Positions 1 to 32,000 of a stretch of 32,000 nucleotides of DNA are shown here, in pieces. Positions within the stretch are counted from its first letter, which is position 1, and the number at the start of each line of letters is the position of its first letter. Source of the DNA: Candidatus Nanogingivalaceae bacterium (GTDB lineage Bacteria; Patescibacteriota; Saccharimonadia; Saccharimonadales; Saccharimonadaceae); NCBI GenBank assembly GCA_015257795.3, contig CP072208.2:540001-572000 (forward strand). Reading direction: 5' to 3'. A program made the position numbers and the translations under genes. Below the pieces are notes generated by a model. That model searched no databases. It was not told the DNA's origin and saw only the letters and a program-made list of their open reading frames with translations.

Positions 1-1
1 A

Positions 2-538
2 AAAACTCAAAAAAAGCGGTTTGGCGTTTTTCGAAAAGAAATTAAATTTAGCGAAATGAATTTTGAAGAACGAGTTGATATTTTAAATCAAATTGCTTTA
101 ATCGATAATGTTTATATTTATTACATTGCTATCTATAAACCTAATGCAGCGATTCTACGCAAGCTGCCTCATAATCTAGCCTATAATTACTTTTCTGGAA
201 TGTTAATTGATCGTATCGTTAGTGATTTCAATGAAGATATCAAGGTCGTATTTGACCAGCGCTCAACTGCTATAAAATCTCAAAATTCACTTCTTGAATA
301 CATCACTATCCGCGCAGCAACTAACCCAAACTTTAATCGTACAATTTTTGTTACTCAAAAAGATTCGCGTAGTAGTAAACGCCTCCAGTTTGCAGACGTT
401 ATTGCGGGTGCTATCGGAAGCTTCTATCGACACAGTGGCGACACTTCCCTAATCTCTATTATTGAGCCAAAAATTATAAAATGCCATTGCGAAGAATATC
501 CTGAAGCCAATTTTATAAACCCCTTTCTCAAAAAATAA
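2..538 (+). CDS. DUF3800-like protein, 5' end probably cut by the window edge
   Basis: The frame is open from nt 2, with no stop upstream of the ATG at 56, so the gene likely starts left of the window. C-terminal RLQFADVIAGAIG resembles the conserved Q-x-AD-x-x-AG motif of DUF3800. A hairpin terminator follows. Confidence 0.5.
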   Translation, partial: KTQKKRFGVFRKEIKFSEMNFEERVDILNQIALIDNVYIYYIAIYKPNAAILRKLPHNLAYNYFSGMLIDRIVSDFNEDIKVVFDQRSTAIKSQNSLLEYITIRAATNPNFNRTIFVTQKDSRSSKRLQFADVIAGAIGSFYRHSGDTSLISIIEPKIIKCHCEEYPEANFINPFLKK

Positions 539-560
539 ATAGGGCCTTTAGCCCTATTTT
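537..560. terminator. bidirectional hairpin terminator between the DUF3800-like gene and trxB
   Basis: AAATAGGGC (537-545) pairs with GCCCTATTT (551-559) around a 5-nt loop, with an A-run before and a T-run after. Confidence 0.6.
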
Positions 561-1540
561 TAATTATTATGGATAAAATTAGCGATGTTTATTGCAGCCT
601 GAACCCCTGTTGAAGCCGCCACTACAATTTGTTTTTGAGAATTTTCTAAAATATCACCAGATGCATAAACTCGCGGAATATTCGTTTCAAAACTTGAATT
701 TACAATAATTTCACCCCTATCGTTCGTTTCAACTCCCGATTTTTTAGCAAAATCAGAATTTGGGTTCAAACCGATAAATTCGAAAATTGCCGCCGATTTG
801 ATATTGAAAGTTTTTTCACCCTCTTCGGTCTTTTGCTGAACTTGTGCACCAATTATTTTTTCACCAAAATCGGTTTTCTCAAATAACAATTCTTTAATCT
901 CAGTTTTTAAAAACAGATTAATTTTACCTCGTTCAACCGCTTCAAACAGCCTCTTTTGAAGTATCTCTTGTGCTGAAATTTGATTTCGAACTAAAAGATT
1001 CACTTTCGAAAACTTACTCAAGAACAAAGCTTCTGTAATTGCCGAGTTTCCGCCACCAACTGCAATCAAATCTTTTCCTGCGTAAAACGGACCATCGCAG
1101 GTAGCGCAAGTGTGGATTCCGCGCCCAAAAAACTCTTCTTCACGAGGGAGTCCAAGCATTTTATAGGAATTTCCGGTTGCAATTAAAACTGTTTTCGCCT
1201 CTAAAAAACCACCATCAATATTTAATTCTATAAAGTTTCCTTTGTCCGAAAATTCTAAAACTTCACCATAATCAAACTTTGCACCAAATTTTTCGGCCTG
1301 AACTTTCATTTTTTTCGAAAGCTCTAAACCAGAAATACCCTCATCAAAACCAGGATAATTCTCGATTAAATCTGAATTTGTTACGATTCCGCCAAATGCT
1401 GATTTTTCAAAAACTCGAACCTCCAGCCCATCGCGAGCGGCATAAATTGCCGCACTAAGGGCTGATGGACCAGAGCCAATAATTACTAAATCTACCACTC
1501 TATTCAATACCTTGCAAGTCTGGCTGCGGAACTTCCTCAA
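560..1540 (-). CDS. trxB: thioredoxin-disulfide reductase
   Basis: FAD fold VIIGSGPSALSAAIYAARDG, redox-active CATC (HTCATCDG) and NADPH site AVGGGNSA. The ATG at 1540 overlaps the upstream gene by 41 nt. GTG 1498 or TTG 1507, just before the GSGPS fold, are likelier starts. Confidence 0.9.
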   Translation of the reverse strand: MRKFRSQTCKVLNRVVDLVIIGSGPSALSAAIYAARDGLEVRVFEKSAFGGIVTNSDLIENYPGFDEGISGLELSKKMKVQAEKFGAKFDYGEVLEFSDKGNFIELNIDGGFLEAKTVLIATGNSYKMLGLPREEEFFGRGIHTCATCDGPFYAGKDLIAVGGGNSAITEALFLSKFSKVNLLVRNQISAQEILQKRLFEAVERGKINLFLKTEIKELLFEKTDFGEKIIGAQVQQKTEEGEKTFNIKSAAIFEFIGLNPNSDFAKKSGVETNDRGEIIVNSSFETNIPRVYASGDILENSQKQIVVAASTGVQAAINIANFIHNN

Positions 1541-2183
1541 AATCCGGAATTAACATCACGATAAATTTCAAAGGTGTATTCGGAGCGATACTCTTTGAAG
1601 AATCTTCACTGTTAGGCGATCCTTGAGCACCATAAGCTTTATCTGCAGGAATTGTTAATTCGCGAACTCCGCCAACTTTCATTCCTTTCAAACCTTCACT
1701 CCAACCTTTAATGACATTCCATTCATTATTATCCTTCTTAAAGACAACTGGGGACTTTAAACTACCATTCGAAAAGCTACTATCGAACACTGTTCCATCA
1801 GGCTTCCAGCCAATATAGTAAGCCTGGAATTTCGTTGTTGAGTCGGTAATTTCTGCACCATCACCTTCTTTTAAATCTACCTTTGAAAGTTCTTTTACAC
1901 TTGCAGCATTAAATGCACTTGGAGTTTTTTCATACTCTTTAAAAGTATCGTAATATTTTGCTGAAAGTTCTTTAGCTTGAGCTTCAACTTTCTTTTGATA
2001 TTCTTGGTAAGTTTTCAAAAGTTGTGATTGCTTTTTTTGATCTTCTTGTTGAGTTTTAGTTTGCAAGAATGATGAAGCATAAAGCGCAACTGTTGAAACT
2101 ATTGTTAAAATTAGAATTCCCCAAATCGATACGCGTAACCAAGTTGGTGTTCCAGTTTGTAATGAATTTTTCTTATTTGCCAT
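1500..2183 (-). CDS. membrane-anchored FKBP-type peptidyl-prolyl cis-trans isomerase
   Basis: N-terminal TM helix (WLRVSIWGILILTIVSTVALYA). FKBP core DGTVFDSS ... VIKGWSEGLKGMKVGGVRELTIPADKAYG. SD GGAGGG lies 4 nt upstream of the ATG. Confidence 0.85.
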   Translation of the reverse strand: MANKKNSLQTGTPTWLRVSIWGILILTIVSTVALYASSFLQTKTQQEDQKKQSQLLKTYQEYQKKVEAQAKELSAKYYDTFKEYEKTPSAFNAASVKELSKVDLKEGDGAEITDSTTKFQAYYIGWKPDGTVFDSSFSNGSLKSPVVFKKDNNEWNVIKGWSEGLKGMKVGGVRELTIPADKAYGAQGSPNSEDSSKSIAPNTPLKFIVMLIPDFEEVPQPDLQGIE

Positions 2184-2191
2184 TTTCCCTC

Positions 2192-4693
2192 CTAGATTAT
2201 TTTTCCGCCATTTTTTACGGCTTTTTCTTCGATTTTTTGCATAATATCCCGAATTTCATCACCATTTAAAGTTTTTTCGAAAGGTGTGATCTTGAACCGA
2301 ATTGAAATATTTTTTGTACCATCGCCGTTATTAAACATATCTATTGGCGAAGTTTCAATCTCAACACCCTTAAATTCACTCGAAATATCTTTAAAAATAT
2401 CAAAAATTTCAGCAAATTGCCGCGATTCATCAACGTTTATTGAAATATCACGCTCAACAGATTGGAATTTTGAAAAATCTTTAATTTTAACACTTGTTCT
2501 TCCTGTATTTTCAAGCAAAATTCCCAAATCAAGTTCAAAACCGGCAGTTGATTCTGGTAGTTTCAAGGCTTTTTGAATCTTTTTCTTGAATTCACCAATT
2601 ACGCCCAAGGTCTTTTCGCCTTCAGAATTCGAAACCTGAATTAAAGCCGAACGTTTTGGTTCAAATTCGGTTGAAAGTGGTGATTTCGAAAGATCAAATT
2701 TTATAAATTTAACCTTTAGACCGAGCTTCTTGAATAGAAAATCTGCATAATTTTTAGCCTCGAAAAATGTATTTTCGCCCTTACTTTTTGTGTAAATAAA
2801 GGCTAGTTTTTTCTGCTCAAACGGAACATTTTCTTCATTCAAGCCAAGCGTTTTTTCAGTTATTTTATTCATCTCAAAAATAGCAAATTCACTAAAACCA
2901 GCACGAATATTCTGGTTAACTTTCGAAAGTAAGCTTGGCATTAAAGTTTGGCGATAATATTGCAATTCTGGTGAGATTGAATTTACAATTTTATAGGCAT
3001 TTTTTGGATCTTGTCCGGCTTTTTTAAGCAGATCGCCATGAACAAAAGTATAGGTTAAAATTTCATTTGCGCCACTTGATACTAAAATTTCACGAATTTC
3101 AGATTGGAGTAAATCAATTTTCGCTTTCTTTACAGCCCTAAATGTTCGTTTTGGAAGCTGCAATTTAATATTATCATAACCGTTCAATCGGCCAACTTCT
3201 TCAATTAAATCTTCTTCAATATGCAAATCGTTTCGCCAAAATGGAACTACGAATATTTCAGAATTATCATTTTTGGTCAAAATTCCAACATTTTCTAGAG
3301 TTTTTCGAATCTCTTCACTAGAAAAATTCGTTCCCAAAATTTGATTAATTTTGTCTTTCGAAACTGAAATCTCGGATTTATTGTAGTAAAAATCACCTTT
3401 CGAATCCGCAATTTCACTTAAAGATTTTCCGCCAAGCGCCAAAAGTTGCACACCAAACAAATCTAGAACTTTTCGTGACATCATTTCTGGCACGCCTTTT
3501 GTAAACCGAGTAATTGCTTCCGAAAAAATTCCGTGTCGCATTTGAGTGTTTCGCAAATTATAAAGGTTAAAAGTTGCACTTTCTACTAAAATTCGTGTCG
3601 TATTTTCATCAATTTCGGTTGATTTTCCGCCCATTGCGCCTGCAAGAGCCACAGCATTTTCACCGTTTTCACCCGTTGCAATTACGATATCATTTTGACT
3701 CATTTTAATTTTTCGGCCATCCAAAAGTTCAAGCTCTTCATTTTCGAAAGCTTTTCGAACAGTCATTTTAACATTTTCGCTCCCGTTGATTTCAACCAAT
3801 TTATCAAAATCAAAAGTGTGGAGCGGTTGGCCAGTTTCAAGCATTAGCTCGTTTGCTAAATCAGTTATTGTATCAATTGGCCGCATTCCAGAGCGCAAAA
3901 GATAAGTTTTTTCAAGTGTTAAATTTGGATTTTTCAAAATATCAGAAACATCAAAAATAGCCGCAGTGTAACGTTCGCAGATTTCAGAATCCTGAGCATC
4001 AATCACAATCGATTTATCATTATTAACTTCAAAACCAAAATCTGATTGCTTTATAAAATCTGGTTCAACAAATTTCTGCCCCAAAATACCAGCAACTTCA
4101 CGCGCAAATCCAATAATTCCAAAACAGTCAGGTCGATGCGTTAAGCTTTTGTTTTCGACCTCAAGAAGATAATCATTAAGTTCAAATTTCTCTGTAAAAG
4201 AATCACCTGCCTGAAGACCATTTTCGAAAGCTTCTGGTGAAATCTCTAGAATTCCGTCATGCTCATCACCCAAGCCAAGTTCGCGCAAGCTCGCAATCAT
4301 ACCATTGCTCATGTTACCCATTAGTTTTCGAGCGCTAAGCTGGAAATTTTCACCACCAAAAGTTTCTGGAACGATTGCTTTAGGTGGCAACCAAGCTACA
4401 AAAAGGCCTTCTCTTACGTTTGGCGCACCACAAACTACTTGAACAAACCCGTTTTCGTCACGTTCAACACCGTCACGCTTACCGCCGTCATCGATTTTAC
4501 ACAAATTCAAATGATCGCTACCTTCAACTTTTTTAGCTGAAATTACGCGCGCGATAACTACATCTTTATATTTTTCGTTTAAATTTTCAATACTTTCAAT
4601 CTCAACTAACCGTGCGCCAATCAATTTCGAAAGCTCATCAATCTCTGGCAAATCTGGAACAAACTTTTTAAGCCAATTTACTGAAATTATCAT
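2192..4693 (-). CDS. pheT: phenylalanine--tRNA ligase beta subunit
   Basis: 833 aa with an N-terminal tRNA-binding OB (VVIARVISAKKVEGSDHLNLCKIDDG), B3/4 and B5 domains and a C-terminal FDX-ACB-like domain. It sits directly downstream of pheS. Confidence 0.93.
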   Translation of the reverse strand: MIISVNWLKKFVPDLPEIDELSKLIGARLVEIESIENLNEKYKDVVIARVISAKKVEGSDHLNLCKIDDGGKRDGVERDENGFVQVVCGAPNVREGLFVAWLPPKAIVPETFGGENFQLSARKLMGNMSNGMIASLRELGLGDEHDGILEISPEAFENGLQAGDSFTEKFELNDYLLEVENKSLTHRPDCFGIIGFAREVAGILGQKFVEPDFIKQSDFGFEVNNDKSIVIDAQDSEICERYTAAIFDVSDILKNPNLTLEKTYLLRSGMRPIDTITDLANELMLETGQPLHTFDFDKLVEINGSENVKMTVRKAFENEELELLDGRKIKMSQNDIVIATGENGENAVALAGAMGGKSTEIDENTTRILVESATFNLYNLRNTQMRHGIFSEAITRFTKGVPEMMSRKVLDLFGVQLLALGGKSLSEIADSKGDFYYNKSEISVSKDKINQILGTNFSSEEIRKTLENVGILTKNDNSEIFVVPFWRNDLHIEEDLIEEVGRLNGYDNIKLQLPKRTFRAVKKAKIDLLQSEIREILVSSGANEILTYTFVHGDLLKKAGQDPKNAYKIVNSISPELQYYRQTLMPSLLSKVNQNIRAGFSEFAIFEMNKITEKTLGLNEENVPFEQKKLAFIYTKSKGENTFFEAKNYADFLFKKLGLKVKFIKFDLSKSPLSTEFEPKRSALIQVSNSEGEKTLGVIGEFKKKIQKALKLPESTAGFELDLGILLENTGRTSVKIKDFSKFQSVERDISINVDESRQFAEIFDIFKDISSEFKGVEIETSPIDMFNNGDGTKNISIRFKITPFEKTLNGDEIRDIMQKIEEKAVKNGGKII

Positions 4694-4737
4694 TATTCCC
4701 TCTTAATTTATTTATTACTTTTATAACTTGTTTAGTG

Positions 4738-5769
4738 CTAAAATTCCCTTAAGAATTCCAGTTTAGCACTTTCGAAATAACGAATATCCGAAATTCCATA
4801 TTTCAACATAACTAACCGTTCAATTCCGCCACCCCACGCAAAACCACGATATTTTTTGCTATCAATTCCAGCCGATTCTAAAACATTTGGGTGAATCATT
4901 CCGCATCCAAGCATTTCAAGCCATTCGCCTTTTTTACCACCGAGAGCCTCTGGTTTTTCAATTAGAAACTCAAGGCTAGGTTCTGTAAATGGAAAATAAC
5001 CCGGTTGTGTACGGATTTCTAATTTTTGACCATAATATTCTTCAAAAAAGGCGTGAAGTGTACCTAACATTTGCGCTAAGTTTGCAGTTTCGCTCACAAA
5101 AACGCCTTCACACTGATAAAAAGTATGTTCATGAGTTGCGTCTAAGTCTTCATTTCGAAAAACTCGCCCATAAGAAACGTGCGCAATTTGACCTTCTTCT
5201 TCAAGTTGTTTTTTACCGTGTTTTAAAACGCGGTTTTGCATCGTTGAGGTGTGTGCTGGCGGAATAAAGTTTTCCTCGGTTCGAAAAGTATCGTAACCAT
5301 CTCGTGCTGGGTGATTTTCTGGAAAATTCAACGCTCCAAACATATTCCAATCATTATCGATTTGGCGAGATTCGATTGCTTCAAATCCCATTCTAGTGTA
5401 GATGTCTATAACTTTTTCAAGTTCCTTTTGAAGTGGATGCTTTGAGCCATTCTTTGCGCTTAAAAGTTGAGGTTTTTTAGCAATTTTCTCGTGTGAGCTT
5501 GCTGCGAAAGGAGCAGAAATATCGATTTCTTCAATTTCAGAATTTTCTTTTTCTTCAAGAATTTCTGAAACTTCAGCTTGAATCTCATTTTTTAAATCAT
5601 TAACTTTTGATCCAAACTCACCCTTTTGCTCATTTGGTAAAGTTGGGATAATCTTATAAAGTTCCTTAATTTTTGGCGATTTTAAAATATCACTTGGATT
5701 TTCAAGCGTTTTAAGCTCCGCCAAAAGCTCTTCCCTAATCTGTTGAATTTGTTCCATAACTGATATCAT
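4738..5769 (-). CDS. pheS: phenylalanine--tRNA ligase alpha subunit
   Basis: Class II motifs ENHPARDGYDTF, GRVFRNEDLDATHEHTFYQCEG and GFAWGGGIERLVMLKYGISDIR. The first ATG (5769) lies inside a TGgTATAAT box, so ATG 5757 (MEQIQQ...) is the likelier start. Confidence 0.93.
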   Translation of the reverse strand: MISVMEQIQQIREELLAELKTLENPSDILKSPKIKELYKIIPTLPNEQKGEFGSKVNDLKNEIQAEVSEILEEKENSEIEEIDISAPFAASSHEKIAKKPQLLSAKNGSKHPLQKELEKVIDIYTRMGFEAIESRQIDNDWNMFGALNFPENHPARDGYDTFRTEENFIPPAHTSTMQNRVLKHGKKQLEEEGQIAHVSYGRVFRNEDLDATHEHTFYQCEGVFVSETANLAQMLGTLHAFFEEYYGQKLEIRTQPGYFPFTEPSLEFLIEKPEALGGKKGEWLEMLGCGMIHPNVLESAGIDSKKYRGFAWGGGIERLVMLKYGISDIRYFESAKLEFLREF

Positions 5770-5808
5770 TATACCACAATTGTACTATTTTGTCGATTTT
5801 CGAAAAAT

Positions 5809-6075
5809 CTAAACTCGCTGTGAAGCTACCCAAATATAAAGTCCTAAAGCGATCAAAATCGCCAAAAATACCAAAAACCAAACAAATGCCAAACCTGTTG
5901 TTTCTTTAGTTCCTTCAAGGTATGCACTATCTTCAATATCAGGATTTTCTTTCTTATTTTTTGGTGTATCGCCCCCTTCACCAAGTGAATTTTTAATCTG
6001 TTTTTCACGAAGTTCTGCTGCAATCTTCTCTTGCAGCTCCGTTCGATTATCGTCTTGTCGTACATATAAAGCCAT
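5809..6075 (-). CDS. hypothetical tail-anchored small membrane protein (88 aa)
   Basis: Charged N-terminal half plus a single C-terminal TM helix (LAFVWFLVFLAILIALGLYIWV). TGaTACAAT ends 6 nt upstream of the ATG. I recognise no family. Confidence 0.5.
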   Translation of the reverse strand: MALYVRQDDNRTELQEKIAAELREKQIKNSLGEGGDTPKNKKENPDIEDSAYLEGTKETTGLAFVWFLVFLAILIALGLYIWVASQRV

Positions 6076-6094
6076 ATTCCTATTGTATCAAATT

Positions 6095-6124
6095 TTGACT
6101 TTTTAGAAAAGTTTATGTTAAAAT
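6095..6124 (+). promoter_or_regulatory. sigma70-type promoter of the aquaporin gene
   Basis: TTGACT (6095-6100), 18-nt spacer, then TGtTAAAAT (6116-6124). It is followed by a leader carrying the strong SD AAGGAGG (6143-6149). Confidence 0.6.
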
Positions 6125-6153
6125 ATAAGCATAAGTTAAACTAAGGAGGAAAA

Positions 6154-6990
6154 ATGGCAACAAAAAAAGCCAGTTCAAAGAAAGCTTCAAAAGCTACCTC
6201 AAAAGTAGCAGAAGAAATTCAAAAAACCGAAGCAATAGTTAAAACTGTTGTTAAAAAAGAGTCTAACTCTGTGAGCGAAATTTCAAAACCAAGCTTCATT
6301 ACAGCTGTAGTTCTTGAATTTATCGGAACATTCCTGTTAGCCGCTGCCGTAATTGCAGGACAAGGTCAACCGCTTGTTGTATTATTTGCTCTAGCTGCAA
6401 TCGTGTTGATTGCTGGAAAAATCAGTGGTGCTCACGTTAATCCATTAATTACTGTTGGCGCTTGGGCGACTCGACGTATTAGCACAGCTAAAGCTTTGTT
6501 TTATATCGTTGCTCAAGTTCTGGGTGCAATGATCGCTTTCGTAATTTTGAATGCTTTTGTTTCAAATGCGCCAGAAGTTTCACAACAAGCTGCATTGTAC
6601 GGCCAACAAAAAGCCACAATGTTTACAGCTAATGTTATTCCACATGGTAAAGAACTTCTAATTCTTGCTTCAGAATTAATTGGATCTTTCCTATTTGCTT
6701 TTGCTGTAGCATCTGTAACATCAGACAAAAAGAAAGGAAGTTCAGCTGTAGCTTTTGGCGTTGGTGGTGGATTATTCCTTGCCGTATTAATCGCAGGCTC
6801 ACTTTCATCAGTGGTTGGTGGATCTGCAATTCTTAACCCAGCTGTAGCATTTTCATTACAAGCATTTACGCTTAAAGGACAAAACGTTCTATTCGCAATT
6901 GCAACATATGTTGGAGCTGCACTACTTGGTGGAATCCTAGGATTTGCGCTAGATTCATTAATTCAAGAAGCTTCAAAAGAAGAAAAATAA
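6154..6990 (+). CDS. MIP-family channel (aquaporin/glycerol facilitator-like)
   Basis: Six-TM pattern with the two hemipore motifs HVNPLITVG (an NPL variant) and ILNPAVAF (NPA). It has a Lys/Ser-rich N-terminal extension of about 48 aa. Confidence 0.85.
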   Translation: MATKKASSKKASKATSKVAEEIQKTEAIVKTVVKKESNSVSEISKPSFITAVVLEFIGTFLLAAAVIAGQGQPLVVLFALAAIVLIAGKISGAHVNPLITVGAWATRRISTAKALFYIVAQVLGAMIAFVILNAFVSNAPEVSQQAALYGQQKATMFTANVIPHGKELLILASELIGSFLFAFAVASVTSDKKKGSSAVAFGVGGGLFLAVLIAGSLSSVVGGSAILNPAVAFSLQAFTLKGQNVLFAIATYVGAALLGGILGFALDSLIQEASKEEK

Positions 6991-6997
6991 ATTATAC

Positions 6998-7027
6998 AAA
7001 AAAGAGCGAAGCAACATTCGCTCTTTT
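6998..7027. terminator. bidirectional terminator shared by the aquaporin gene and rmuC
   Basis: Perfect 8-bp stem AGAGCGAA (7003-7010) / TTCGCTCT (7017-7024) with a 6-nt loop, flanked by an A-run and a T-run. Confidence 0.75.
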
Positions 7028-7037
7028 AATTTTGCTT

Positions 7038-8138: not shown

Positions 8139-8190
8139 TTTTCTCCTTTTAAAGTTACTGTAATTACTTAAATTATAGCAACATTAAGAC

Positions 8191-8218
8191 AAAAATAAAA
8201 GGCGCTTTTCGCACCTTT
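8191..8218 (-). terminator. greA terminator
   Basis: On the minus strand, AAAGGUGC pairs with GCGCCUUU (8 bp including one G-U) around a 5-nt loop, followed by a U-rich tract. Confidence 0.55.
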
Positions 8219-8227
8219 TATCTGTTT

Positions 8228-8692: not shown

Positions 8693-8796
8693 ATTGATCC
8701 TCCTTTTGTAGCAACGCTACATTGTTATTATATCGAACTATTCTTAAAAAACGCTTAAATTTATCATTTCTTTCATTTTTATGGTAAAATATAATC

Positions 8797-10827: not shown

Positions 10828-10845
10828 TTCCAATTGAAACAGATT

Positions 10846-10870: not shown

Positions 10871-10890
10871 TTTTATGCTATAATTTACTT

Positions 10891-23354: not shown

Positions 23355-23797
23355 CTAACTTCCCTAACTTTAACCAATCGTTTATCCTCACTTACACTTT
23401 CGAAAATCAATTTCAAATGTTTTTCTGGTAAGATATCAGCCAGATCCCCAGCCCATTCTACTACTGTAATATTTTGTGGATCGCTTAAATTTTCAGCTAG
23501 CTCCATTTTCATAATTCCATAATCGTTCAACCTATAAAAATCGTAGTGCGAAAGCGTTAAATTATCTCCTTCATAAACCCTCGAAATAGTAAAAGTTGGG
23601 CTCTGTACCGTTTCAAGGACCCCTAGGCCAAGAGCAAGACCTTTTGTAAATGTAGTTTTTCCAGCACCTACATCACCAATAAGCTCTAAAACTGAACCAC
23701 CCTCAAGATTCGAACCAATTTCTTTTCCAAATTCTATCATCTCTTCGGTAGAATTTATTTCTCTTTCGAAATTTTTCACAAAACTATTATACCACAT
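23351..23797 (-). CDS. tsaE: tRNA t6A biosynthesis ATPase TsaE
   Basis: Walker A GDVGAGKTTFTKGL, then SPTFT and HYDFYRL. ATGA overlap with tsaB. Confidence 0.88.
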   Translation of the reverse strand: MWYNSFVKNFEREINSTEEMIEFGKEIGSNLEGGSVLELIGDVGAGKTTFTKGLALGLGVLETVQSPTFTISRVYEGDNLTLSHYDFYRLNDYGIMKMELAENLSDPQNITVVEWAGDLADILPEKHLKLIFESVSEDKRLVKVREVR

Positions 23798-24968: not shown

Positions 24969-25241
24969 CGTCTTCTCAAAACCAATATTTTTCGAAATTT
25001 TATGATTTTCAAAATTATAAATTGAACCTCGCCAAAACGAAATTAGAATTCCCGAGCATAAAATAAAAACAATACAAATTCGACGAGCATAAATCCATGA
25101 AAATACTAAAAGAATTAAAGATAAAACCAGCCAAACACTACTTTTAAAGAATGTTATATCCGAAAGAATCGCAATAACTGCACCGAATATTATAGCCGCA
25201 AAAAATACAAAATTTAAGTAAAATCGATGAATCGGTTTGAT
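24969..25241 (-). other. in-frame upstream extension of comEC encoding three TM helices, with no ATG/GTG/TTG
   Basis: My translation of the minus frame is stop-free from 25292. It reads IKPIHRFYLNFVFFAAIIFGAVIAILSDITFFKSSVWLVLSLILLVFSWIYARRICIVFILCSGILISFWRGSIYNFENHKISKNIGFEKT. AAGGAG lies at 25258-25253 and ATC at 25241. Confidence 0.6.
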
Positions 25242-25248: not shown

Positions 25249-26505
25249 CTACTCCTTAAATTGGCGTTTTTTATTTCGATAAACTCGGTAATTTACAAAA
25301 ATCATCGGTAGAACTAAGATTCCCGAAATAAATACTATTATTCGTAATGCAGTTTCGCCGGTTGGATCAACGCTGCTTGTATTTGCAAATATCCAAAAAA
25401 GCAACAAGACGCCCAAAACTGATGCTAGGTCCACTCCTGCTCCATAGATACACAGATATTGTGTTCGCATCCCAGATTCATCAGCCTCCCCATAGAGACC
25501 TTTTGAGTTAGCCATATCGAAACCGCTTGAAGATATACCGCCTAATATCTCAGAAAATCCAATAAAAGTCGGGTTTGAGCCAAGAAAAACTCTTAAAGAA
25601 TGGACCATCCCCATCAATAAAGAGCTAATCTTTAAAAGCCCACCTTCCTTATTTCTATCTATAATTTTTCCATAAGTAAATGCCGCTACAAACGCAGAAA
25701 TCGAAGCGATTGAGGCCAGGATTCCAGCTGAACCATAGGTGTTTACTCCTTTTAGAATAAAAACCGACGCAAGAAAACTCCAGGTAGTAGTTGAAAGTGC
25801 AGCCATTCCAGTACTAAGGCAAATAATACTTAAGTGTTTATAATTTCGCCAAGGGAAGCCTCGAAAACTCACTTTTTGATTTACCTTAATCGGCTCTCTG
25901 GTTACCAGCAATGGAATAATTGTTAATACTAAAATCACCGAAGAAACAATAAATAGTTTGTCTAGACCAAAAAAAATCGCAAAAAAAGCACCCGCAGCCG
26001 GAGTGATACCACTCACCAACTGCTCTAGGATGTTAGCAATTCCAAGCTGACCACCCACTTTTTTAGCATTCTTAACTTTCGAAAAATTTACATGATAAGA
26101 GACTCCAGATATAGCACCTGATAAACCTCTAAAAACAGCTCCGATTAAGGCAATTATTAGGCCGAATTCTTTATTGAAGCCTCCTATTGAAGCCATTAAG
26201 ATTAAAACTGGAATGTATAAAATATTCCCCAGCAACATCCCATGCTTTGGCCCATTTTTTGAAATGTACAAGAAAGACACCATTGAACCAACAAACTTTG
26301 CAGTAAAATACACGAGTAGATAAGCTAAAACCGCCCGAATAGAATAACCCAAGTTGTAAAGATAAATTAAATTAAAGGCACTCGTCAATTTAATCGCAAA
26401 AAGTCGCATATTTTTCGAAAGATATAAAACAGCGACTTCATCAAAAGAGATATTTCGCCAATAGCTTCGAATTTTCAAGATTGGTCTTAACGTTTTTTTA
26501 AGCAT
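25249..26505 (-). CDS. MFS-type transporter
   Basis: 418 aa with about 12 predicted TM helices and the overall MFS pattern. I cannot infer a substrate. Confidence 0.65.
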   Translation of the reverse strand: MLKKTLRPILKIRSYWRNISFDEVAVLYLSKNMRLFAIKLTSAFNLIYLYNLGYSIRAVLAYLLVYFTAKFVGSMVSFLYISKNGPKHGMLLGNILYIPVLILMASIGGFNKEFGLIIALIGAVFRGLSGAISGVSYHVNFSKVKNAKKVGGQLGIANILEQLVSGITPAAGAFFAIFFGLDKLFIVSSVILVLTIIPLLVTREPIKVNQKVSFRGFPWRNYKHLSIICLSTGMAALSTTTWSFLASVFILKGVNTYGSAGILASIASISAFVAAFTYGKIIDRNKEGGLLKISSLLMGMVHSLRVFLGSNPTFIGFSEILGGISSSGFDMANSKGLYGEADESGMRTQYLCIYGAGVDLASVLGVLLLFWIFANTSSVDPTGETALRIIVFISGILVLPMIFVNYRVYRNKKRQFKE

Positions 26506-26589: not shown

Positions 26590-27885
26590 ATGAATATTTA
26601 TTTTTCTGGAATTGGTGGCGTTGGAATTGGCGCCCTTGCAAGTATTGCTCACAGTGCTGGGTATAAGGTTTTTGGTAGTGATCAAAATTCAAGTTTAATG
26701 ACCGAAGAACTTCTAAAAAAAGACGTCGAGATTGAAATCGGTAAGCAAGATGGCAGCTTTTTAAAAAGTAAGTTTATTAATGATAGCGTAGATTGGTTTG
26801 TATACACTGCAGCTCTACCTAAAGACCACCCAGAACTTAAGACTGCTCAAGAATTAGGAATTAAAATTACAAAGCGAGACGAGCTTTTGAATGAAATTAT
26901 AACTTCCAAAAACCTTAAGCTTATTGCAATTTCAGGAACTCATGGAAAAACTACCACAACAGGAATGGCAATTTGGGCCTTTAAACAGCTAAATATTCCC
27001 GTTAGCTGGTCAATTGGTACAACTATTTCTTTTGGTGAAAGTGGCTTTTTTGACCCAAAGAGTGAATACTTTATTTATGAAGCAGATGAATTTGATCGGA
27101 ATTTTCTTCATTTTACACCGGCGGTTAGTTTGATAACATCAATCGATCATGATCATACCGATATCTACAAAACTGAGCAGGATTATTTTGATGCTTTTAC
27201 AGAATTTGGTGCTCAGAGCGATTTTATCATTTCTTGGAAAGACCAACATCCAGAAATTTTCGAAAAGTTCAACAATAAAGTAATTCTATCTAAACCTGAA
27301 GAAAAACTAAAAATTCCTGGCCTTCATAATCGCAAGAATGCAAGTCTTGTTCTTGAAACCATCGATTATCTTGTCGAAGCTCAAGATCTACAAGCTCCAG
27401 AAGATTTTTATGAAAAAACTATAGCCGCATTGAATAACTTTCCAGGAACAAATCGCCGTTTCGAAAAAATAACCGAAAATATTTATTCAGATTACGGACA
27501 TCACCCAAAAGAAATTCAAGCAACGCTTCAATTAGCAAACGAGGTAGCAAAAAATAACGGTTTTTCTGGAATTTCTCTGATCTATCAGCCCCATCAAAAC
27601 GTTCGCCAAGTTGAGGTGCAAGATGAATATACGCCAGAAATTTTCAAGTACGCAGATGAAATTATTTGGTTGCCAACATATTTAAGCCGTGAAAATCCTA
27701 ATTTTGAGATTCTCTCACCTGAATTTCTATCTAGAAAAGTATATGAAAAAACAATCGTTATGGATCTTGCAAAAAATGATTCACAATTATTAGAAAAAAT
27801 CAATGAACTTAAAGATGAAAATCGACTAATTCTAGCTATGAGCGCCGGCTCTCTTGATGGCTGGATTCGAAAAAGATTAAAATAA
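26590..27885 (+). CDS. murC: Mur ligase, MurC-like (UDP-N-acetylmuramate--L-alanine ligase or Mpl-type)
   Basis: N-terminal Rossmann FSGIGGVGIGALASIA..G..VFGSD and P-loop ISGTHGKTTTTGM. TGaTAAAAT (26575-26583) ends 6 nt before the ATG. Confidence 0.75.
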   Translation: MNIYFSGIGGVGIGALASIAHSAGYKVFGSDQNSSLMTEELLKKDVEIEIGKQDGSFLKSKFINDSVDWFVYTAALPKDHPELKTAQELGIKITKRDELLNEIITSKNLKLIAISGTHGKTTTTGMAIWAFKQLNIPVSWSIGTTISFGESGFFDPKSEYFIYEADEFDRNFLHFTPAVSLITSIDHDHTDIYKTEQDYFDAFTEFGAQSDFIISWKDQHPEIFEKFNNKVILSKPEEKLKIPGLHNRKNASLVLETIDYLVEAQDLQAPEDFYEKTIAALNNFPGTNRRFEKITENIYSDYGHHPKEIQATLQLANEVAKNNGFSGISLIYQPHQNVRQVEVQDEYTPEIFKYADEIIWLPTYLSRENPNFEILSPEFLSRKVYEKTIVMDLAKNDSQLLEKINELKDENRLILAMSAGSLDGWIRKRLK

Positions 27886-28014: not shown

Positions 28015-28494
28015 CTAAACTATTGATGGGCTGCCCGAAAGCTTGTTGGCAACTATTTTCACAGATTTCTCTAAGGTTAAAGCGAGATTATTAAACAAAC
28101 AAAGTGAGTAAATGTTTAAATATAAATCTGAAGAATAGTCAAAGAGTGAAATTAATTCATGCCATGCTTCCCTTATCAATCCCGAAACATCATCGTATTT
28201 GAATTCATTTCTGGAAGATATTTGAACAATTTCAATAGATAAATCAAGAACTCTTTTTGCGCAAAAATTTAAACGCGTTACTTCATTGATGATTAGAGAT
28301 TCATTTTTTATAAAATTAATTTTTAAGCTTTCTACACCCATACTATGCATGTAAAGATCGGGATCAAGATTAAGCTCATTCATGATTTCTGAAAGTTTTT
28401 TAAATGCACCTAGCCATTCATCAACAGTATGTCTCTCGGACGCAAAAATAATTTTGTCTAAATAATTTATTGTAAAATCTTCGTTTCTAATCAT
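28015..28494 (-). CDS. hypothetical all-alpha protein (159 aa), no recognisable family
   Basis: The tracked ORF runs to 28524, but that ATG lies inside a TGaTATTAT box. SD GAGAGGA (28507-28501) sits 6 nt before ATG 28494 (MIRNEDF...). The gene has its own promoter and terminator. Confidence 0.55.
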   Translation of the reverse strand: MIRNEDFTINYLDKIIFASERHTVDEWLGAFKKLSEIMNELNLDPDLYMHSMGVESLKINFIKNESLIINEVTRLNFCAKRVLDLSIEIVQISSRNEFKYDDVSGLIREAWHELISLFDYSSDLYLNIYSLCLFNNLALTLEKSVKIVANKLSGSPSIV

Positions 28495-28590
28495 TATTTT
28501 TCCTCTCACTTTATATAATATCATAAAATAGACTAAAGCGGTATAAACTAAGTTAACTTTCTGCCTCTACTCCGAGTTTTGCTCAACAAT

Positions 28591-28745: not shown

Positions 28746-30593
28746 TTAAGGAGTCTTGTAAAGAGTTTCCTTTTTAGCAGACCAATAGATTACATCCGAA
28801 TATCTATCAGTATCTGTTACAAATTTATTTTCAGCTGAATAAGGCTGAACTGACTTTCTAAATACATAACTAACTTTTGTTTGACCGAGGCCAATTGCAG
28901 CAGAACTGTTAATCCAGCGTCGAGTAAACTTTGTTAGCTGTGTCTTCTTGTCATCGAAAGTTCGTGCAGTACGAGCATTCAACAATAAATCATCCGAGAT
29001 AGCGTCACTATAGTTTGAAAAATTTAAGCCCTTTTGACTAGCTTGCGAAGAATGCCAAAAAGGATAAATATCGGAGTCTGCACCCATGTCAATCTCATAA
29101 ATTAAAATTCCATAATTTCTTGGTTGAAGAATCGTTTGAACAAAAGTGCCAAGCTTATCGTCTTTATCAATAATCGTACTATTCACATCAAAACCAAGCT
29201 TTTTCAACTGAGACGCGATTTCTTCTGCAGATTTTTTATAATTATAAACACTCGTCGTCGCAATATTAATAGTTGCCTTTTGACCATCTTTTTCACGAAT
29301 ACCTTTTGAATTTTTCATCCAGCCAGTTTCATCCAACATTTTCTCAGCTTGTGAAAAATTATATTCAGGAACGGAAAGCCAATTGGTATTTATAAACTTA
29401 TTTAATGTCGGGTAATCCAAATTATTGATATATTCCATCTTACTATGAATTTTATTCATATCTAAACCAGTCTGGATCGCTTTTCGAACCTTTGCATCCT
29501 TTAAAATTGGATCTGAGTTATTCAAAAAAGCATAAATTCCACGATTAACACTAGTTTCATATGACTTCAACCCTACTTGTTCAGAACTACTAAAATCGTT
29601 AATTTTAACATTAGGTGAAGCTACAATTTCACCAGAAACTAGCGCTTTCTTTAGTTTGGCTTCATCTTGAAAAGCAACAATATCAAAATTATCAATATAT
29701 GGTTCACCCTTATAGTAATTTTTATTTTTTACTAATGAAACTGTAGTTTTATTAGTATTGCTATTAGTTTGCACTCCTTTAAAATTAAAGGGGCCTGAAG
29801 TTACTGGATTATTAGAGAACGAACTCTCACGAATTTTATCTGTAGAAACATCTTTTAAAACATGTTCAGGAAGAATTGAAAAATTGAAACCATATAAAAC
29901 TGATGATGAATTTGAAGGAACTTTAAATTTAACCTCATAATCACCTGATTTTGAAGCCTCTACATTTTTCCAAACTTTATATGCAGATGGGTTTAAATTT
30001 TGGTCTTTTAATTTTTTTATAGTAAAAATAACATCGTCTGCAGTAATTTTTTGTCCATCAGACCAAGTAGCATTTTTACGCATTTTTATAGTGAAATTGC
30101 GATAATTATCACTAGTTTCAACACTTTCCGCCAAATCTCCTTTCAGCGAGCCATCACTATCTATACTATACAATCTAGAAAAAGCAAGCCGCTCGAAAGA
30201 TTTTTCTGCATCAGTTGTAGCAAAAATTGGATTTAAAGTTTTAATTTCACTCAAAAACCCTTCCGAATACGTCCCACCCCTAAAAAAAACCTCTTCAGAA
30301 AAATTACGATCACTCAACCATCTAAATAAACCAATTGACGAAATCAATAGAGCCATCACACAAATCCAAACAACAATTAGTTTTCGAACGTTTGAGAGGT
30401 TTTCGAAGCGTCCAAAGAATAGCTTCTTGGTATGCGAAATAACAGCTTTCTCAGCAATATCAGCCTTCTCTAAAAAAGACAGTTTTTTACTATCTATAGC
30501 CTGAATTGAACGAACTTTCGAAACTTTGCCTCTATTTTTTTGAGACATATTAGAAACTCGCTTAACTTTTTTTGGGTTTTTTTTAAAATCCAT
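28746..30593 (-). CDS. ABC-transporter family-5 (peptide/nickel type) substrate-binding protein, TM-anchored
   Basis: 615 aa with a basic cytoplasmic leader of about 70 aa, one TM helix (LIVVWICVMALLISSIGLF) and an SBP_bac_5-like body (ATWSDGQKITADDVIFT ...). No permease or ATPase genes are adjacent. Confidence 0.75.
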   Translation of the reverse strand: MDFKKNPKKVKRVSNMSQKNRGKVSKVRSIQAIDSKKLSFLEKADIAEKAVISHTKKLFFGRFENLSNVRKLIVVWICVMALLISSIGLFRWLSDRNFSEEVFFRGGTYSEGFLSEIKTLNPIFATTDAEKSFERLAFSRLYSIDSDGSLKGDLAESVETSDNYRNFTIKMRKNATWSDGQKITADDVIFTIKKLKDQNLNPSAYKVWKNVEASKSGDYEVKFKVPSNSSSVLYGFNFSILPEHVLKDVSTDKIRESSFSNNPVTSGPFNFKGVQTNSNTNKTTVSLVKNKNYYKGEPYIDNFDIVAFQDEAKLKKALVSGEIVASPNVKINDFSSSEQVGLKSYETSVNRGIYAFLNNSDPILKDAKVRKAIQTGLDMNKIHSKMEYINNLDYPTLNKFINTNWLSVPEYNFSQAEKMLDETGWMKNSKGIREKDGQKATINIATTSVYNYKKSAEEIASQLKKLGFDVNSTIIDKDDKLGTFVQTILQPRNYGILIYEIDMGADSDIYPFWHSSQASQKGLNFSNYSDAISDDLLLNARTARTFDDKKTQLTKFTRRWINSSAAIGLGQTKVSYVFRKSVQPYSAENKFVTDTDRYSDVIYWSAKKETLYKTP

Positions 30594-30600: not shown

Positions 30601-30828
30601 CTATTTAGGCAAAAGTAAAATTGTAAGAATTGATGCTACAAATATAAATGCAAAAAATATCGTAGCTCTAAAAATACTTTTCTCTACCCCGCGTCGCTCT
30701 GTGTACAATTCACCGGAAGCACCAAAGCCAGCACCAAGGGTCGCACCACGCTGTTGAAGTAAAATTAAAAGCATTGTCAAAATACCCGAAATTACGGTCG
30801 CAAATTGCAAAATAACATTAATATTCAT
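30601..30828 (-). CDS. secG: preprotein translocase subunit SecG
   Basis: 75 aa with two TM helices and the LLQQRGATLGAGFG signature. Confidence 0.85.
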   Translation of the reverse strand: MNINVILQFATVISGILTMLLILLQQRGATLGAGFGASGELYTERRGVEKSIFRATIFFAFIFVASILTILLLPK

Positions 30829-31199
30829 TACAAAGTCTCCTTTTCTTTATCAATACCAAAAAATTGGCTTAAACTATAATTCAACAAACTCATCGCCGCA
30901 CCAACTATAACAGAATTCCAAAATCCCATAGAAATATTTGGCGCCAAAATCATTGAAATCCACACAATTAAGCCATTTACAATTAATGTAAAGAAGCCAA
31001 AGGTTACAATAATCATTGGCAATGATAAGATTGTAAGAATAGTTTTTAGCGAACTATTAACAACCGAAAAAATCAGACCGGCTAAAAAGAAAGTTCCTGC
31101 ACTATGGTTACTGACATTTCCAAAAATTGAAACTAAAATCCATAGCAAAAAACTATTCAAAAACCACCGATTTATAAATGTTATCAATTGATCTTTCAC
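30828..31199 (-). CDS. DUF360 / phage-holin-4 superfamily membrane protein
   Basis: 123 aa with four TM helices. LSLPMIIVTFGFFTLIVNGLIVW and GFWNSVIVGAAMSLLN match the YvlD/DUF360 pattern. GTG start. Its stop overlaps the secG start. Confidence 0.6.
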   Translation of the reverse strand: MKDQLITFINRWFLNSFLLWILVSIFGNVSNHSAGTFFLAGLIFSVVNSSLKTILTILSLPMIIVTFGFFTLIVNGLIVWISMILAPNISMGFWNSVIVGAAMSLLNYSLSQFFGIDKEKETL

Positions 31200-31256
31200 A
31201 TTACCATTTTAACATATTTCAACAATAAAAAAAACACCTTTTGGTGATTTTTAAAT

Positions 31257-31333
31257 TGGTGGGTCTGATGGGGTTCGAACCCATGACACCCTGCTTAAAA
31301 GGCAGGTGCTCTAACCAGCTGAGCTACAGACCC
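31257..31333 (-). tRNA. tRNA-Lys (anticodon UUU), CCA encoded
   Basis: The reverse complement reads GGGTCTGTAGCTCAGCTGGTTAGAGCA-CCTGC-CTTTTAA-GCAGG ... TTCGAAC ... CAGACCCACCA. Confidence 0.9.
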
Positions 31334-31378
31334 GTGCACTAACTGTATTTAAGAGTATATCTTATTTATCAATAAAAG

Positions 31379-31843
31379 TCAAGACTTTTTCTCGTTTTTC
31401 TTAAATTTAACTGGCGCAATACTCAAAATTGAAAGCACAACGCCAGCCAATATCACCCAGTTCATCCAATAGCCTAAAAAGATAGCTATATTTTTAGACA
31501 TATTATCTAAAACAAAAACTTTTTCAAAATATGGTAACAACAATAAAAATGCAAAAAATGCAGAAAATGCAGAAGAAATAACCCTAATAATCCAATTTTC
31601 TTGCTTTGGGTTTTTTGTCAAAATTAATAAAGCTGGTGCTAAAATCAAGACAATCCCAACAATTCCACTTAGTGTTAATTCTGGAATTGTTAAATTTGAA
31701 GTTGTCAAAAAATTCGTAATTTCTTTATTCCAGTATTTATTAAGCACAACCCCAGATAAAACTACTAAGTTGAAATATCCCATTTTTCGTTGCGAAAGTG
31801 TCAAAAAAACAATCAAAATCGCAATAAATATTATTGTTATCAT
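31379..31843 (-). CDS. hypothetical integral membrane protein (154 aa, 4-5 TM)
   Basis: Hydrophobic helices run throughout. TATAAT (31856-31851) ends 7 nt before the ATG. I recognise no family. Confidence 0.5.
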   Translation of the reverse strand: MITIIFIAILIVFLTLSQRKMGYFNLVVLSGVVLNKYWNKEITNFLTTSNLTIPELTLSGIVGIVLILAPALLILTKNPKQENWIIRVISSAFSAFFAFLLLLPYFEKVFVLDNMSKNIAIFLGYWMNWVILAGVVLSILSIAPVKFKKNEKKS

Positions 31844-31872
31844 AATTAATATTATACTCTATTTTTCAATTT

Positions 31873-32000
31873 TCAAAACAATGACTTTTTAGATTTTTTA
31901 AATTCTTTAAGAAGTTCTTTTTGCTTCTTCGAAAGTCGTGTTGGAGTTTCAACAATAATCGTTACAATGTGCGCACCACGTTTATCATTTCGAAGATATG
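31873..32000 (-). CDS. dnaJ: chaperone DnaJ, C-terminal 41 codons (gene continues beyond the window)
   Basis: Not in the ORF track. My translation of the minus frame from 31998 is YLRNDKRGAHIVTIIVETPTRLSKKQKELLKEFKKSKKSLF*, the typical DnaJ C-terminal beta-strand plus the L-x-x-Q-K-E-L-L-x-E-F tail. TGA stop at 31875-31873. Confidence 0.7.
   Translation of the reverse strand, partial: YLRNDKRGAHIVTIIVETPTRLSKKQKELLKEFKKSKKSLF

Follow-up and report, generated by a model that had tools for sequence, protein, structure and literature searches.

Results

Abundance and Placement of the Word in the Window

The stretch of DNA analysed here, called the window throughout, is the 32,000-base segment at positions 540,001–572,000 of contig CP072208.2 from a Candidatus Nanogingivalaceae bacterium; its guanine-plus-cytosine (GC) content is 35.4%, and the 30 genes that we defined make up 91% of it. 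The subject of this work is a dispersed array that extends over the whole window (1–32,000, without strand) and consists of 93 copies of TTCGAA, 45 of them forming the full octamer TTTCGAAA, close to the roughly 90 and 45 copies that the first-pass annotation of this DNA had estimated by eye. The hexamer occurs at 2.9 per kb, or about one copy in 350 bases; 82 copies lie in genes, nine are intergenic, in line with the non-coding fraction of 8.6%, and two belong to tRNA T-arms. TTTCGAAA is the most frequent 8-mer of the window, while TTCGAA ranks joint fifth among the 6-mers, below A/T runs only, has the highest z-score over all 6-mers and is the only palindromic hexamer that is strongly over-represented.

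Base composition alone predicts 10.7 hexamers and 1.1 octamers, a first-order Markov model 23.2 and 4.3, and a second-order model 39.3 and 7.2; depending on the model, TTCGAA is thus enriched 2.4–8.7-fold. Dinucleotide-preserving shuffles yielded 4.18 ± 2.2 octamers with a maximum of 12, and the observed 45 was reached in none of 100. As a coding control, synonymous codons were shuffled inside each gene, leaving the protein and its codon usage unchanged. The shuffled genes held 24.0 ± 4.1 hexamers against the 82 observed (z = 14) and 6.0 ± 2.2 octamers against 41 (z = 16), so that the excess of TTTCGAAA is about 7-fold over codon shuffles, 10-fold over the first-order Markov model and 40-fold over base composition. 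The two outcomes named beforehand as fatal to the motif, a count near the Markov or codon-shuffled level and an excess in a single reading frame, did not occur in the window: 21, 24 and 37 genic sites stand in frames f0 (TTC-GAA), f1 (xTT-CGA-Axx) and f2 (xxT-TCG-AAx), where the shuffles give 8.9, 6.6 and 8.6. Enrichment is seen in both gene orientations, in all frames and in intergenic DNA.

The sites are themselves unstranded, and the sign after a gene name gives the strand of the gene; coordinates spanning eight bases denote TTTCGAAA, and those spanning six denote TTCGAA outside the octamer. At the left end, after an intergenic site at 29–36, trxB (−) carries sites at 779–784 (f0), 985–990 (f1), 1004–1011 and 1313–1320 (both f2), and the FKBP gene (−) one at 1768–1773 (f2). 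Eleven fall in pheT (−), at 2275–2282, 3742–3749 and 4222–4229 (f0), 3304–3309 and 3754–3759 (f1), and 2628–2633, 2684–2691, 2921–2928, 3356–3363, 3399–3404 and 4625–4632 (f2), and three in pheS (−), at 4770–4777 (f0), 5153–5160 and 5280–5285 (f1). An intergenic octamer at 5798–5805 is followed by rmuC (−), with 7486–7491, 7597–7602 and 7842–7849 (f2), and greA (−), with 8445–8450 (f2) and 8518–8523 (f1). The ltaS-like gene (+) uses all three frames: 8859–8866 and 10573–10578 (f0), 9190–9197 and 9533–9538 (f1), and 9443–9450, 10566–10571 and 10725–10730 (f2). The first octamer of each frame, with the hexamer beginning at 8860, 9191 and 9444, encodes F-E, F-R-N and L-S-K respectively, exactly as the first-pass annotation had read them when it pointed to genes of both strands and all frames.

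The AAA_17 kinase gene (+) has a single site at 11441–11446 (f1). In argS (−) they lie at 11798–11803 and 11827–11834 (f0) and at 11594–11601, 12543–12548, 13037–13044 and 13082–13089 (f2); in the P-type ATPase gene (+) at 15220–15227 (f0), 13323–13328, 14106–14111 and 15497–15504 (f1), and 14520–14527 and 14692–14697 (f2). The longest open reading frame of this ATPase begins with a TTG that makes it overlap argS (13196–13279); the calls on strain contigs, of 785 amino acids, correspond to the ATG at 13280. Further sites occupy intergenic DNA at 16057–16064, trmD (+) at 16313–16320 (f0) and 16330–16335 (f1), the carbamate kinase gene (+) at 17740–17745 (f0), 17423–17430 and 17477–17484 (f2), pyk (−) at 18146–18151 and 19166–19171 (f1), and the sortase gene (−) at 20577–20582 (f1), 20038–20045 and 20231–20236 (f2). 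Beyond them come gatD (−), with 21376–21383 (f0) and 21010–21015 (f1); murT (−), with 21723–21728 and 22029–22034 (f1) and 21709–21716, 22418–22423, 22429–22436, 22715–22720 and 22730–22735 (f2); tsaB (−), with 23288–23295 (f0); and tsaE (−), with 23398–23405 and 23764–23771 (f0) and 23709–23714 (f2). A comEC-like gene (23802–24968, −; 388 amino acids, Pfam PF03772 Competence), which encodes the DNA-import channel of natural transformation, holds 24176–24183 and 24218–24225 (f0), 24683–24688 (f1), and 23946–23953 and 24792–24799 (f2), with an intergenic octamer at 24990–24997. The last genic sites are those of a major facilitator superfamily gene (−) at 26466–26471 (f1), 26077–26084 and 26413–26420 (f2), a murC-like gene (+) at 27258–27265 and 27459–27466 (f0) and 27866–27871 (f1), and a peptide substrate-binding protein gene (−) at 30402–30407 (f0), 29483–29488 and 30383–30388 (f1), and 30516–30523 (f2); two intergenic hexamers, at 31928–31933 and 31989–31994, close the series.

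Three intergenic hexamers lie around pyk, at 18080–18085, 18106–18111 and 19829–19834. The first, between convergent genes, falls in the loop region of a hairpin (AATAGCC...GGCTATT) and the third at the loop/stem junction of a hairpin at 19818–19840, so that these two terminator sites are as the first-pass annotation described them; about six other predicted terminators between 12 and 32 kb have no site, and terminators are thus not a general location of the word. The hexamers in the T-arms of tRNA-Gln (20845–20850) and tRNA-Lys (31274–31279) are ordinary tRNA sequence and stand outside the excess; an origin of the array from T-arms would cover only these 2 of 93 sites. Spacing is Poisson-like (coefficient of variation 0.95), and the close pairs to which attention had been drawn are at chance level, as eight gaps measure at most 25 bp where a Poisson process gives 6.4 (p = 0.32).

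Some compositional features of the window may be recorded here. Cytosines (6389) exceed guanines (4946), giving a GC skew of −0.13, and minus-strand genes predominate. CpG is not depleted (observed/expected about 1.16–1.18) and CGA is the commonest arginine codon, both unusual for 35% GC. The pairs TTGGCG/CGCCAA (20 against 6.6 expected at second order) and TGGCGA/TCGCCA (16 against 5.6) are each raised about threefold; they were noted in loci L010, L031, L061 and L072 as well and are among the top 6-mers of several unrelated Saccharibacteria, and their excess may be a codon-pair effect.

Positions of the Word under Preference

The base before the hexamer (position −1) is T at 69% of sites and the base after it (+6) is A at 67%, and beyond these two positions the flank logo is flat. 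A longer, AGCT-flanked context resembling AGCTTTCGAAAGCT, proposed in the first-pass annotation, was not borne out, as neither GCTTTCGAAAGC nor the 14-mer occurs even once. The same absence of GCTTTCGAAAGC, and of any conserved flanks of tens of bases, disposes of the idea that the sites are remnants of a dispersed repeat of the repetitive extragenic palindrome or miniature inverted-repeat transposable element type.

Synonymous codons are chosen in favour of the word at each octamer position that can be tested, those outside the CpG included. Phenylalanine is encoded by TTC in 49% of cases before GAA and in 19% elsewhere (position 3, p = 5e-5); serine by TCG in 46% in the context T-Ser-AA and in 0–15% elsewhere (position 4, p = 2e-13); and arginine by CGA in 24 of 27 cases (89%) in TT-Arg-A against 14–43% elsewhere (p = 6e-10), the last test covering positions 5 and 3 jointly against CGT, CGC, CGG and AGA. 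At the outer positions, T precedes TTC-GAA in 19 of 21 cases against 45% elsewhere (position −1, p = 2e-5), and lysine following T-TCG is AAA in all 26 cases against 78% elsewhere (position +6, p = 0.003). Arginine itself is not enriched in the TT-codon-A context (27 observed, 26 expected), hence the frame-1 sites are made by codon choice and not by amino-acid change. Altogether, 82 of the 200 positions at which the protein is compatible with TTCGAA (41%) are occupied, where codon usage predicts 24. The force responsible acts on double-stranded DNA and prefers the complete 8-bp palindrome over all of its one-letter neighbours. Because the enrichment extends to all frames, both orientations and intergenic DNA and the codon preferences depend on context, the constraint is one on DNA rather than on protein, and this claim of the first-pass annotation is now strongly supported. 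By distorting codon usage (TCG, CGA) as well as some protein contexts, the word has consequences for codon- and k-mer-based analyses of these genomes.

Distribution among Strains and Lineages

Over 20.3 kb the window is 100% identical to CP076102.2, the genome of strain JB003 (clade G6/HMT-870, 'Ca. Nanogingivalaceae'), which confirms the earlier assignment of the host to the Saccharibacteria of the Candidate Phyla Radiation (CPR). The complete JB003 genome of 691,584 bp was assembled from saliva (PMC8386444, PMC9600527).

For a survey of lineages, the pheS neighbourhood was taken from 80 species-level genomes. In the close, or crown, G6 clade (about 15 species-level loci, GC 34–43%), TTCGAA is present at 2.1–3.6 per kb and is the top or near-top 6-mer in all loci except L031, in which the Markov expectation is itself high. 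The density falls to 0.9 per kb in the sister pair L010/L015, to 0.2–0.3 in Nanogingivalis gingivitcus and two relatives, and, over about 55 other Saccharibacteria, to 0.0–0.7, often under expectation. When five shared genes are scored for the share of protein-compatible positions that is occupied, the order is the same: 0.23–0.38 in the crown clade (GC 35–43%), L031 included, 0.09–0.11 in L010/L015, and 0.06–0.07 in the outgroups, Nanogingivalis and its relatives. The enrichment therefore began on one branch inside clade G6, and it persists through divergence down to about 70% nucleotide identity. Many of the non-G6 loci (L027–L086) have TTCGAA at only 0.2–0.6 of the second-order Markov expectation, as would be expected if restriction sites were avoided in the ordinary way; the crown clade stands out all the more against them. 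A half-site origin, with CGAAA raised across the Saccharibacteria, was rejected, as CGAAA is raised in the crown clade and in locus L028 only.

A second, independent genomic locus has 2.5–3.0 sites per kb. This locus, L158, came from a scan of metagenome contigs and encodes proteins that cluster with those of Nanogingivalaceae including JB003; in three strains, 2.5–2.7 sites per kb were counted over the matching 20 kb. The excess is therefore not peculiar to the neighbourhood of the window. Scans of public collections for three copies of TTTCGAAA no more than 30 bp apart returned mostly local tandem repeats.

Two of the surveyed contigs deserve separate comment. When L007 (CAUQGB010000001.1) is compared with window positions 522–17783, its PheT, PheS, ArgS and ATPase are 95–99% identical, and its TrxB, FKBP and MIP proteins 65–79% identical, about the distance between clade A and the window; this mosaic of two clades points to homologous recombination between G6 lineages. 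L026 (CAKAEX010000001.1, a 666-kb clade A contig) has many insertions of one or two bases in A/T homopolymers, which disrupt pheS and pheT as would be expected of long-read errors left unpolished, and is unsuitable for codon-level analysis. Methylation cannot be read from these errors, as they are homopolymer insertions and only 1 of 59 short indels is near a site; the private substitutions of this contig are not enriched in the word either (5 observed, about 7 expected).

Core and Strain-Variable DNA

Housekeeping genes carry about 1.4–6 sites per kb, mostly 2.3–5. In contrast to their level of about 2.9 per kb, the strain-variable DNA has 3 sites in a total of 14.8 kb: none in the 2.8 kb of an MmeI-family restriction-modification gene present in some strains and not in others, two in the 7.7 kb of two giant hypothetical genes of one strain, and one in the 4.3 kb of a block adjoining polA that comprises a variable spacer, hyp143 and hyp832. 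At 0.32–0.43, the GC content of these segments lies near that of the genome or a little higher. The MmeI-family enzyme (941 amino acids) is encoded next to a pgi-like gene (L259, 11217–14042; L256, 1–2555) and is absent from L261 and L262.

Inside the window itself, the genes without a site include the following three. The MIP/aquaporin gene (6154–6990, +; 837 bp) is a divergent allele, with 65% amino-acid identity to L007 between flanking genes of 94–99%. At the position of a hypothetical 169-amino-acid gene (28015–28524, −), between the murC-like and the substrate-binding protein genes, other strains have calls of 159, 204 or 205 amino acids, and in place of the Holin_4-like gene (30828–31199, −), which adjoins secG, a 94-amino-acid gene is called elsewhere on the opposite strand; the strains that differ at these two positions are about 96–98% identical (L087–L096). 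In practical terms, the density of the word can be used to tell core from foreign DNA, with a resolution of kilobases. A separate cluster of five tandem T4SS_pilin-domain paralogues followed by a TrbL-like gene (L259, 18652–20922; L261, 15688–21044) includes three paralogues without TTCGAA.

Turnover of Sites

In codon alignments of 16 shared genes, the hexamer is present in at least one species at 114 aligned positions. Sites are gained and lost even between species that are 90–95% identical, and most of the alternative states are synonymous with the word. In frame 0 the alternative is TTTGAA; in frame 2 it is TTCAAA or, more rarely, TTCTAA; and in frame 1 it is TTCGGA, TTCGCA, TTCGTA or TTAGAA. 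In species pairs of about 95% identity the TTY-GAA state differs in 14% of cases, compared with 6.5% for TTY elsewhere and 8–9% for other two-fold sites. From codon frequencies and divergences we estimate that T-to-C fixation at the third T of TTTGAA proceeds at about 3.5 times the rate elsewhere, while the reverse C-to-T loss is about normal.

The hexamer is retained more often than frame-matched hexamers (20 of 41 against 11.4 expected, p = 0.005; 32 of 43 against 23.6, p = 0.013) and no better than the TTTGAA and TTCAAA controls. A comparison of 17 strain contigs within the species gave 89 fixed sites and 23 polymorphic ones, a polymorphic fraction of 20.5% compared with 26.8% for all hexamers (p = 0.16, not significant). 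Thirteen of the 23 polymorphisms are the CpG transitions TTTGAA or TTCAAA, and the word is the majority allele at 12 sites, the minority at 7 and tied at 4, with few strains in the comparison. Sites turn over at about or above the synonymous rate. Given this turnover, the Poisson-like spacing and a conservation that is not clearly elevated, the array is described by an equilibrium density, set by a directional force against mutation, rather than by individually important sites.

Related Words in Other Contigs

Locus L028 (JAVBQO010000001.1, Ca. Saccharimonadaceae EPI_MAG_00169; 1–21005) has TGCGAA/TTCGCA 101 times in 21 kb, in both orientations and all frames, at 2.4–3.1 times the synonymous-shuffle expectation and with an orientation bias of 66:35 in favour of the plus strand. 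In its extended form TTGCGAAA, 56% of copies have T at −1 and 74% have A at +6. This word is non-palindromic and differs from TTTCGAAA by one letter; it is a possible second 'dialect'. If the two words share a cause, palindromy is not essential and the likeness to uptake-sequence dialects would become closer.

Other enriched words were noted in passing. The crown-clade G6 locus L031 (CAZVBN010000001.1, 1–21023; GC 42.5%), with 39 genic TTCGAA against 20.6 in shuffles, also has AAAATC/GATTTT at 2–2.4 times the synonymous-shuffle level on both strands and in all frames, and TCGCCAAA is raised too. Two viral contigs, L122 (1–11983; IMG/VR UViG_3300044959_000237, 111 kb) and L133 (1–6983; UViG_3300020567_000331), contain evenly dispersed TTCGAA at 8.0 and 6.3 per kb; their composition is unlike that of Saccharibacteria (CpG observed/expected 1.7–1.9, TpA 0.27–0.40). 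In L122, TTCCGGAA occurs 51 times and 8-mers such as ATGTTCCG/CGGAACAT recur about 45 times, which suggests a longer palindrome of the form ATGTTCCGGAACAT.

Discussion

The force that favours TTCGAA acts at the level of DNA and on the whole word; it is lineage-specific and directional and operates in every frame as well as in non-coding DNA. Core genes are held at about 40% occupancy of protein-compatible positions, where the force is balanced by mutation, and strain-variable or accessory DNA is left unfilled. The reading that we prefer, with a probability of roughly 40%, is that TTTCGAAA, with the core TTCGAA, is a self-DNA tag of the HIP1 (highly iterated palindrome 1) or uptake-sequence type that has accumulated by a drive linked to transformation and is possibly read in methylated form. 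Under such a mechanism, fragments bearing the word would be taken up and/or recombined more efficiently, perhaps only when the word has been methylated by a cognate TTCGAA methyltransferase. Variants creating the word would then spread through the shared core genome of the recombining population, a course that has been modelled for the USS of Haemophilus and is now proposed for HIP1 in cyanobacteria, while accessory DNA would stay poor in the word, the net effect being a preferential exchange of conspecific core DNA. The presence of comEC in the window provides context for a drive of this kind and not proof of it; ComEC-dependent natural transformation has been demonstrated in another, cultured Saccharibacterium (PMC10633639), and the mosaic structure of L007 indicates that G6 lineages recombine. 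In Synechococcus PCC 7002, transformation increases over 100-fold when HIP1 is methylated, and a role as uptake sequence has been suggested for HIP1. Methyltransferases specific for TTCGAA exist and make N6-methyladenine (m6A; PMC5930826), a modification that would fit the absence of a cytosine-deamination signature here.

Several points weigh against a self-DNA tag. The uptake or recombination bias is itself a step that we infer. Known uptake sequences are longer (9–12 bp) and not palindromic, and a word of 6–8 bp separates self from foreign DNA through its density only. The transformable Saccharibacterium accepts synthetic, unmethylated DNA (PMC10633639), and its genus-level relatives, as sampled, show no such word. 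Neither a receptor nor a TTCGAA methyltransferase was seen in the approximately 80 kb of the JB003-type genome that we examined; two genome walks, covering about 45 kb beyond the window, revealed no methyltransferase of the TTCGAA type, the sole DNA-methyltransferase domain in the DNA examined being that of the MmeI-family enzyme. The scarcity of the word in accessory genes would be equally expected from any slow process that builds words in resident DNA, and hyp832 is poor in the precursors TTTGAA and TTCAAA too, so that amino-acid composition contributes there. The MmeI-family enzyme can be set aside as the agent, as strains without its gene are equally rich in the motif.

The alternative that survives best, though we regard it as unlikely, is that the word has no function of its own and is a by-product of a cognate methyltransferase together with biased mismatch repair or gene conversion, near-cognate mismatches being resolved to TTCGAA; this is Elhai's model for HIP elements, and Dcm/Vsr repair is its paradigm. 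It would account for the CpG transitions TTTGAA and TTCAAA being the commonest alternative states and for the accelerated T-to-C fixation that we back-calculated, and an origin on a single branch fits the gain of one enzyme, of which m6A-forming examples with the right specificity are known (PMC5930826). Elhai 2015 also ties alternative HIPs to matching methyltransferases. A version restricted to T:G mismatches is nevertheless contradicted by the frame-1 sites, in which CGT, CGC, CGG and AGA give way synonymously to CGA, and the outer T and A are driven as well. The deamination products are not depleted (95 TTTGAA/TTCAAA against 94.9 expected at first order), and the C-to-T loss, likewise back-calculated, is not elevated and gives no sign of a 5-methylcytosine hot spot. 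A repair system that corrects any mismatch within an 8-bp word would be hypothetical, and in the DNA examined neither a methyltransferase for the word nor a vsr-like gene was seen. Classical Vsr-type T:G repair in particular is rejected, since transversions and non-CpG positions are driven and deamination products persist.

It is rather less probable that the sites bind an abundant chromosomal protein involved in nucleoid organisation, segregation or replication and that selection keeps their density, as Xu et al. argued for HIP1. A palindrome would suit a dimeric binder, and both the preference for the whole word at all eight positions and the retention above frame-matched hexamers speak for such a protein. 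The retention is nonetheless no better than that of the TTTGAA and TTCAAA controls, and the two-state turnover, equal to or above that of other synonymous sites, leaves no detectable purifying selection on individual sites. On population-genetic grounds, selection on about 2000 interchangeable sites is implausible in a host-dependent bacterium with a reduced genome, and no regular spacing was seen.

We consider it quite improbable that the word was produced, with no reading protein and no function, by replication or repair enzymes of this lineage whose errors are biased by sequence context. In keeping with such a bias are the restriction of the word to one lineage, its presence across the genome and in every frame, the undepleted CpG and the preference for CGA at 35% GC. 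The bias would, however, have to act at six or more positions and through several types of substitution in favour of one 8-bp palindrome; there is no general rise in partial words, ACGAAA and CCGAAA being at or below expectation, and resident strain-variable genes of similar GC content show no build-up. A cause in protein or translation, be it a favoured dipeptide, codon pair or codon bias, is refuted by the tests of reading frame and of codon shuffling. These proteins are indeed rich in F-E, x-S-K/N and [FLIV]-R-x contexts, crown species slightly more so than outgroups (51–55 against 36–41 in five genes), but the excess differs little between the three frames or the two strands, has the same density in intergenic DNA, is not reproduced by shuffles that preserve protein and codon usage, and comes without enrichment of arginine in its context.

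Returning to the self-DNA tag, we may ask how far it extends. It is conceivable, and we offer this only tentatively, that Saccharibacteria, perhaps the CPR widely, use lineage-specific DNA words as self-tags in transformation, in which case TTTCGAAA would be the first palindromic uptake or recombination signal outside the cyanobacteria and TTGCGAAA, in another family, a second dialect; the tag might be read by the type IV pilus/Com machinery, possibly as TTCGA(m6A). If this is true, placing the tag on donor DNA would make transformable such so far intractable lineages as G6, of which we know of no cultured strain, and the word may offer a way to manipulate the oral Saccharibacteria, as yet uncultivated, by genetic means. 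An unusually clean comparison, which could reveal the responsible gene, is possible between sister lineages rich and poor in the motif, given the complete genomes and the nanopore reads that are available for three strains.

In the literature searched we found no description of this word in Saccharibacteria, nor of HIP-type elements outside the cyanobacteria, and TTTCGAAA is to that extent an undescribed HIP- or uptake-sequence-like word. The genome papers on JB001–3 (PMC8386444, PMC9600527) do not mention methylation, restriction or motifs, and among the literature matches to TTTCGAAA that were listed none is relevant, those recognised being incidental cloning or primer sequences.

Comparison with Known Systems

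The hexamer is identical to the site of restriction-modification systems of the BstBI/AsuII type. The type II sites of a resident system are normally avoided in the host genome, whereas TTCGAA is here enriched 3–8-fold. Directional repair offers a second precedent: Bhagwat and McClelland reportedly traced in 1992 the over-abundance of CCWGG in E. coli to the bias of Dcm/Vsr very-short-patch repair. The present case shares with Dcm/Vsr an over-represented word that may be a methyltransferase site, and gains and losses dominated by CpG-type transitions; it differs from it in that the bias extends to transversions and to positions outside the CpG and in that deamination products are not depleted.

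A frequent short palindrome may also become a mark of self once an orphan methyltransferase acts on it, as with methylated HIP1 in PCC 7002 and with RAATTY and CtsM. RAATTY is frequent through AT-richness and is not known to be driven above expectation. Its methylation is said to mark self-DNA in the transformation of Campylobacter jejuni (Beauchamp and colleagues, 2017).

The uptake signal sequences (USS) of Pasteurellaceae and the DNA uptake sequences (DUS) of Neisseriaceae resemble TTTCGAAA in being hyper-abundant in both orientations, in coding DNA and in all frames, in having a strong core and weaker flanks, in being lineage-specific with, possibly, a second dialect here, and in being scarce in accessory DNA of hosts that carry competence genes. 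USS and DUS are non-palindromic words of 9–12 bp at about 1 per kb, whereas ours is a perfect palindrome of 6–8 bp at 2.9 per kb. Maughan, Wilson and Redfield are said to have concluded in 2010 that uptake sequences can accumulate by molecular drive alone. The uptake bias of USS and DUS is established by experiment, as is the DUS receptor ComP (PMC3868556).

HIP1 (GCGATCGC) of cyanobacteria, which the first-pass annotation named as the closest precedent, remains so, and the uptake-type signal that it listed as an alternative has since been merged with HIP1 in the literature. Each of the two words is an 8-bp palindrome with a central CG, present at about one copy per gene in all frames and in intergenic DNA, lineage-restricted and not embedded in a longer repeat. 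According to Xu et al. 2018, conservation between genomes exceeds the background for HIP1; TTTCGAAA is retained better than average words and about as well as the TTTGAA and TTCAAA controls. A density periodic over 10–90 kb is ascribed to HIP-type elements, and some cyanobacterial lineages possess 'alternate HIPs'. In contrast to the GC-rich HIP1 and its cognate methyltransferase, of which no counterpart was found in the 80 kb examined, TTTCGAAA is AT-rich and belongs to a reduced-genome epibiont of another phylum (Patescibacteria/CPR). Its fold excess is at the low end of the 15–300-fold reported for HIP1, its outer two positions are softer, and its turnover points to drive at equilibrium rather than to site-by-site selection. 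For 30 years, palindromes of such abundance have been regarded as a peculiarity of cyanobacteria, and a second, independent case, in a remote phylum and with another sequence, would make the phenomenon general.

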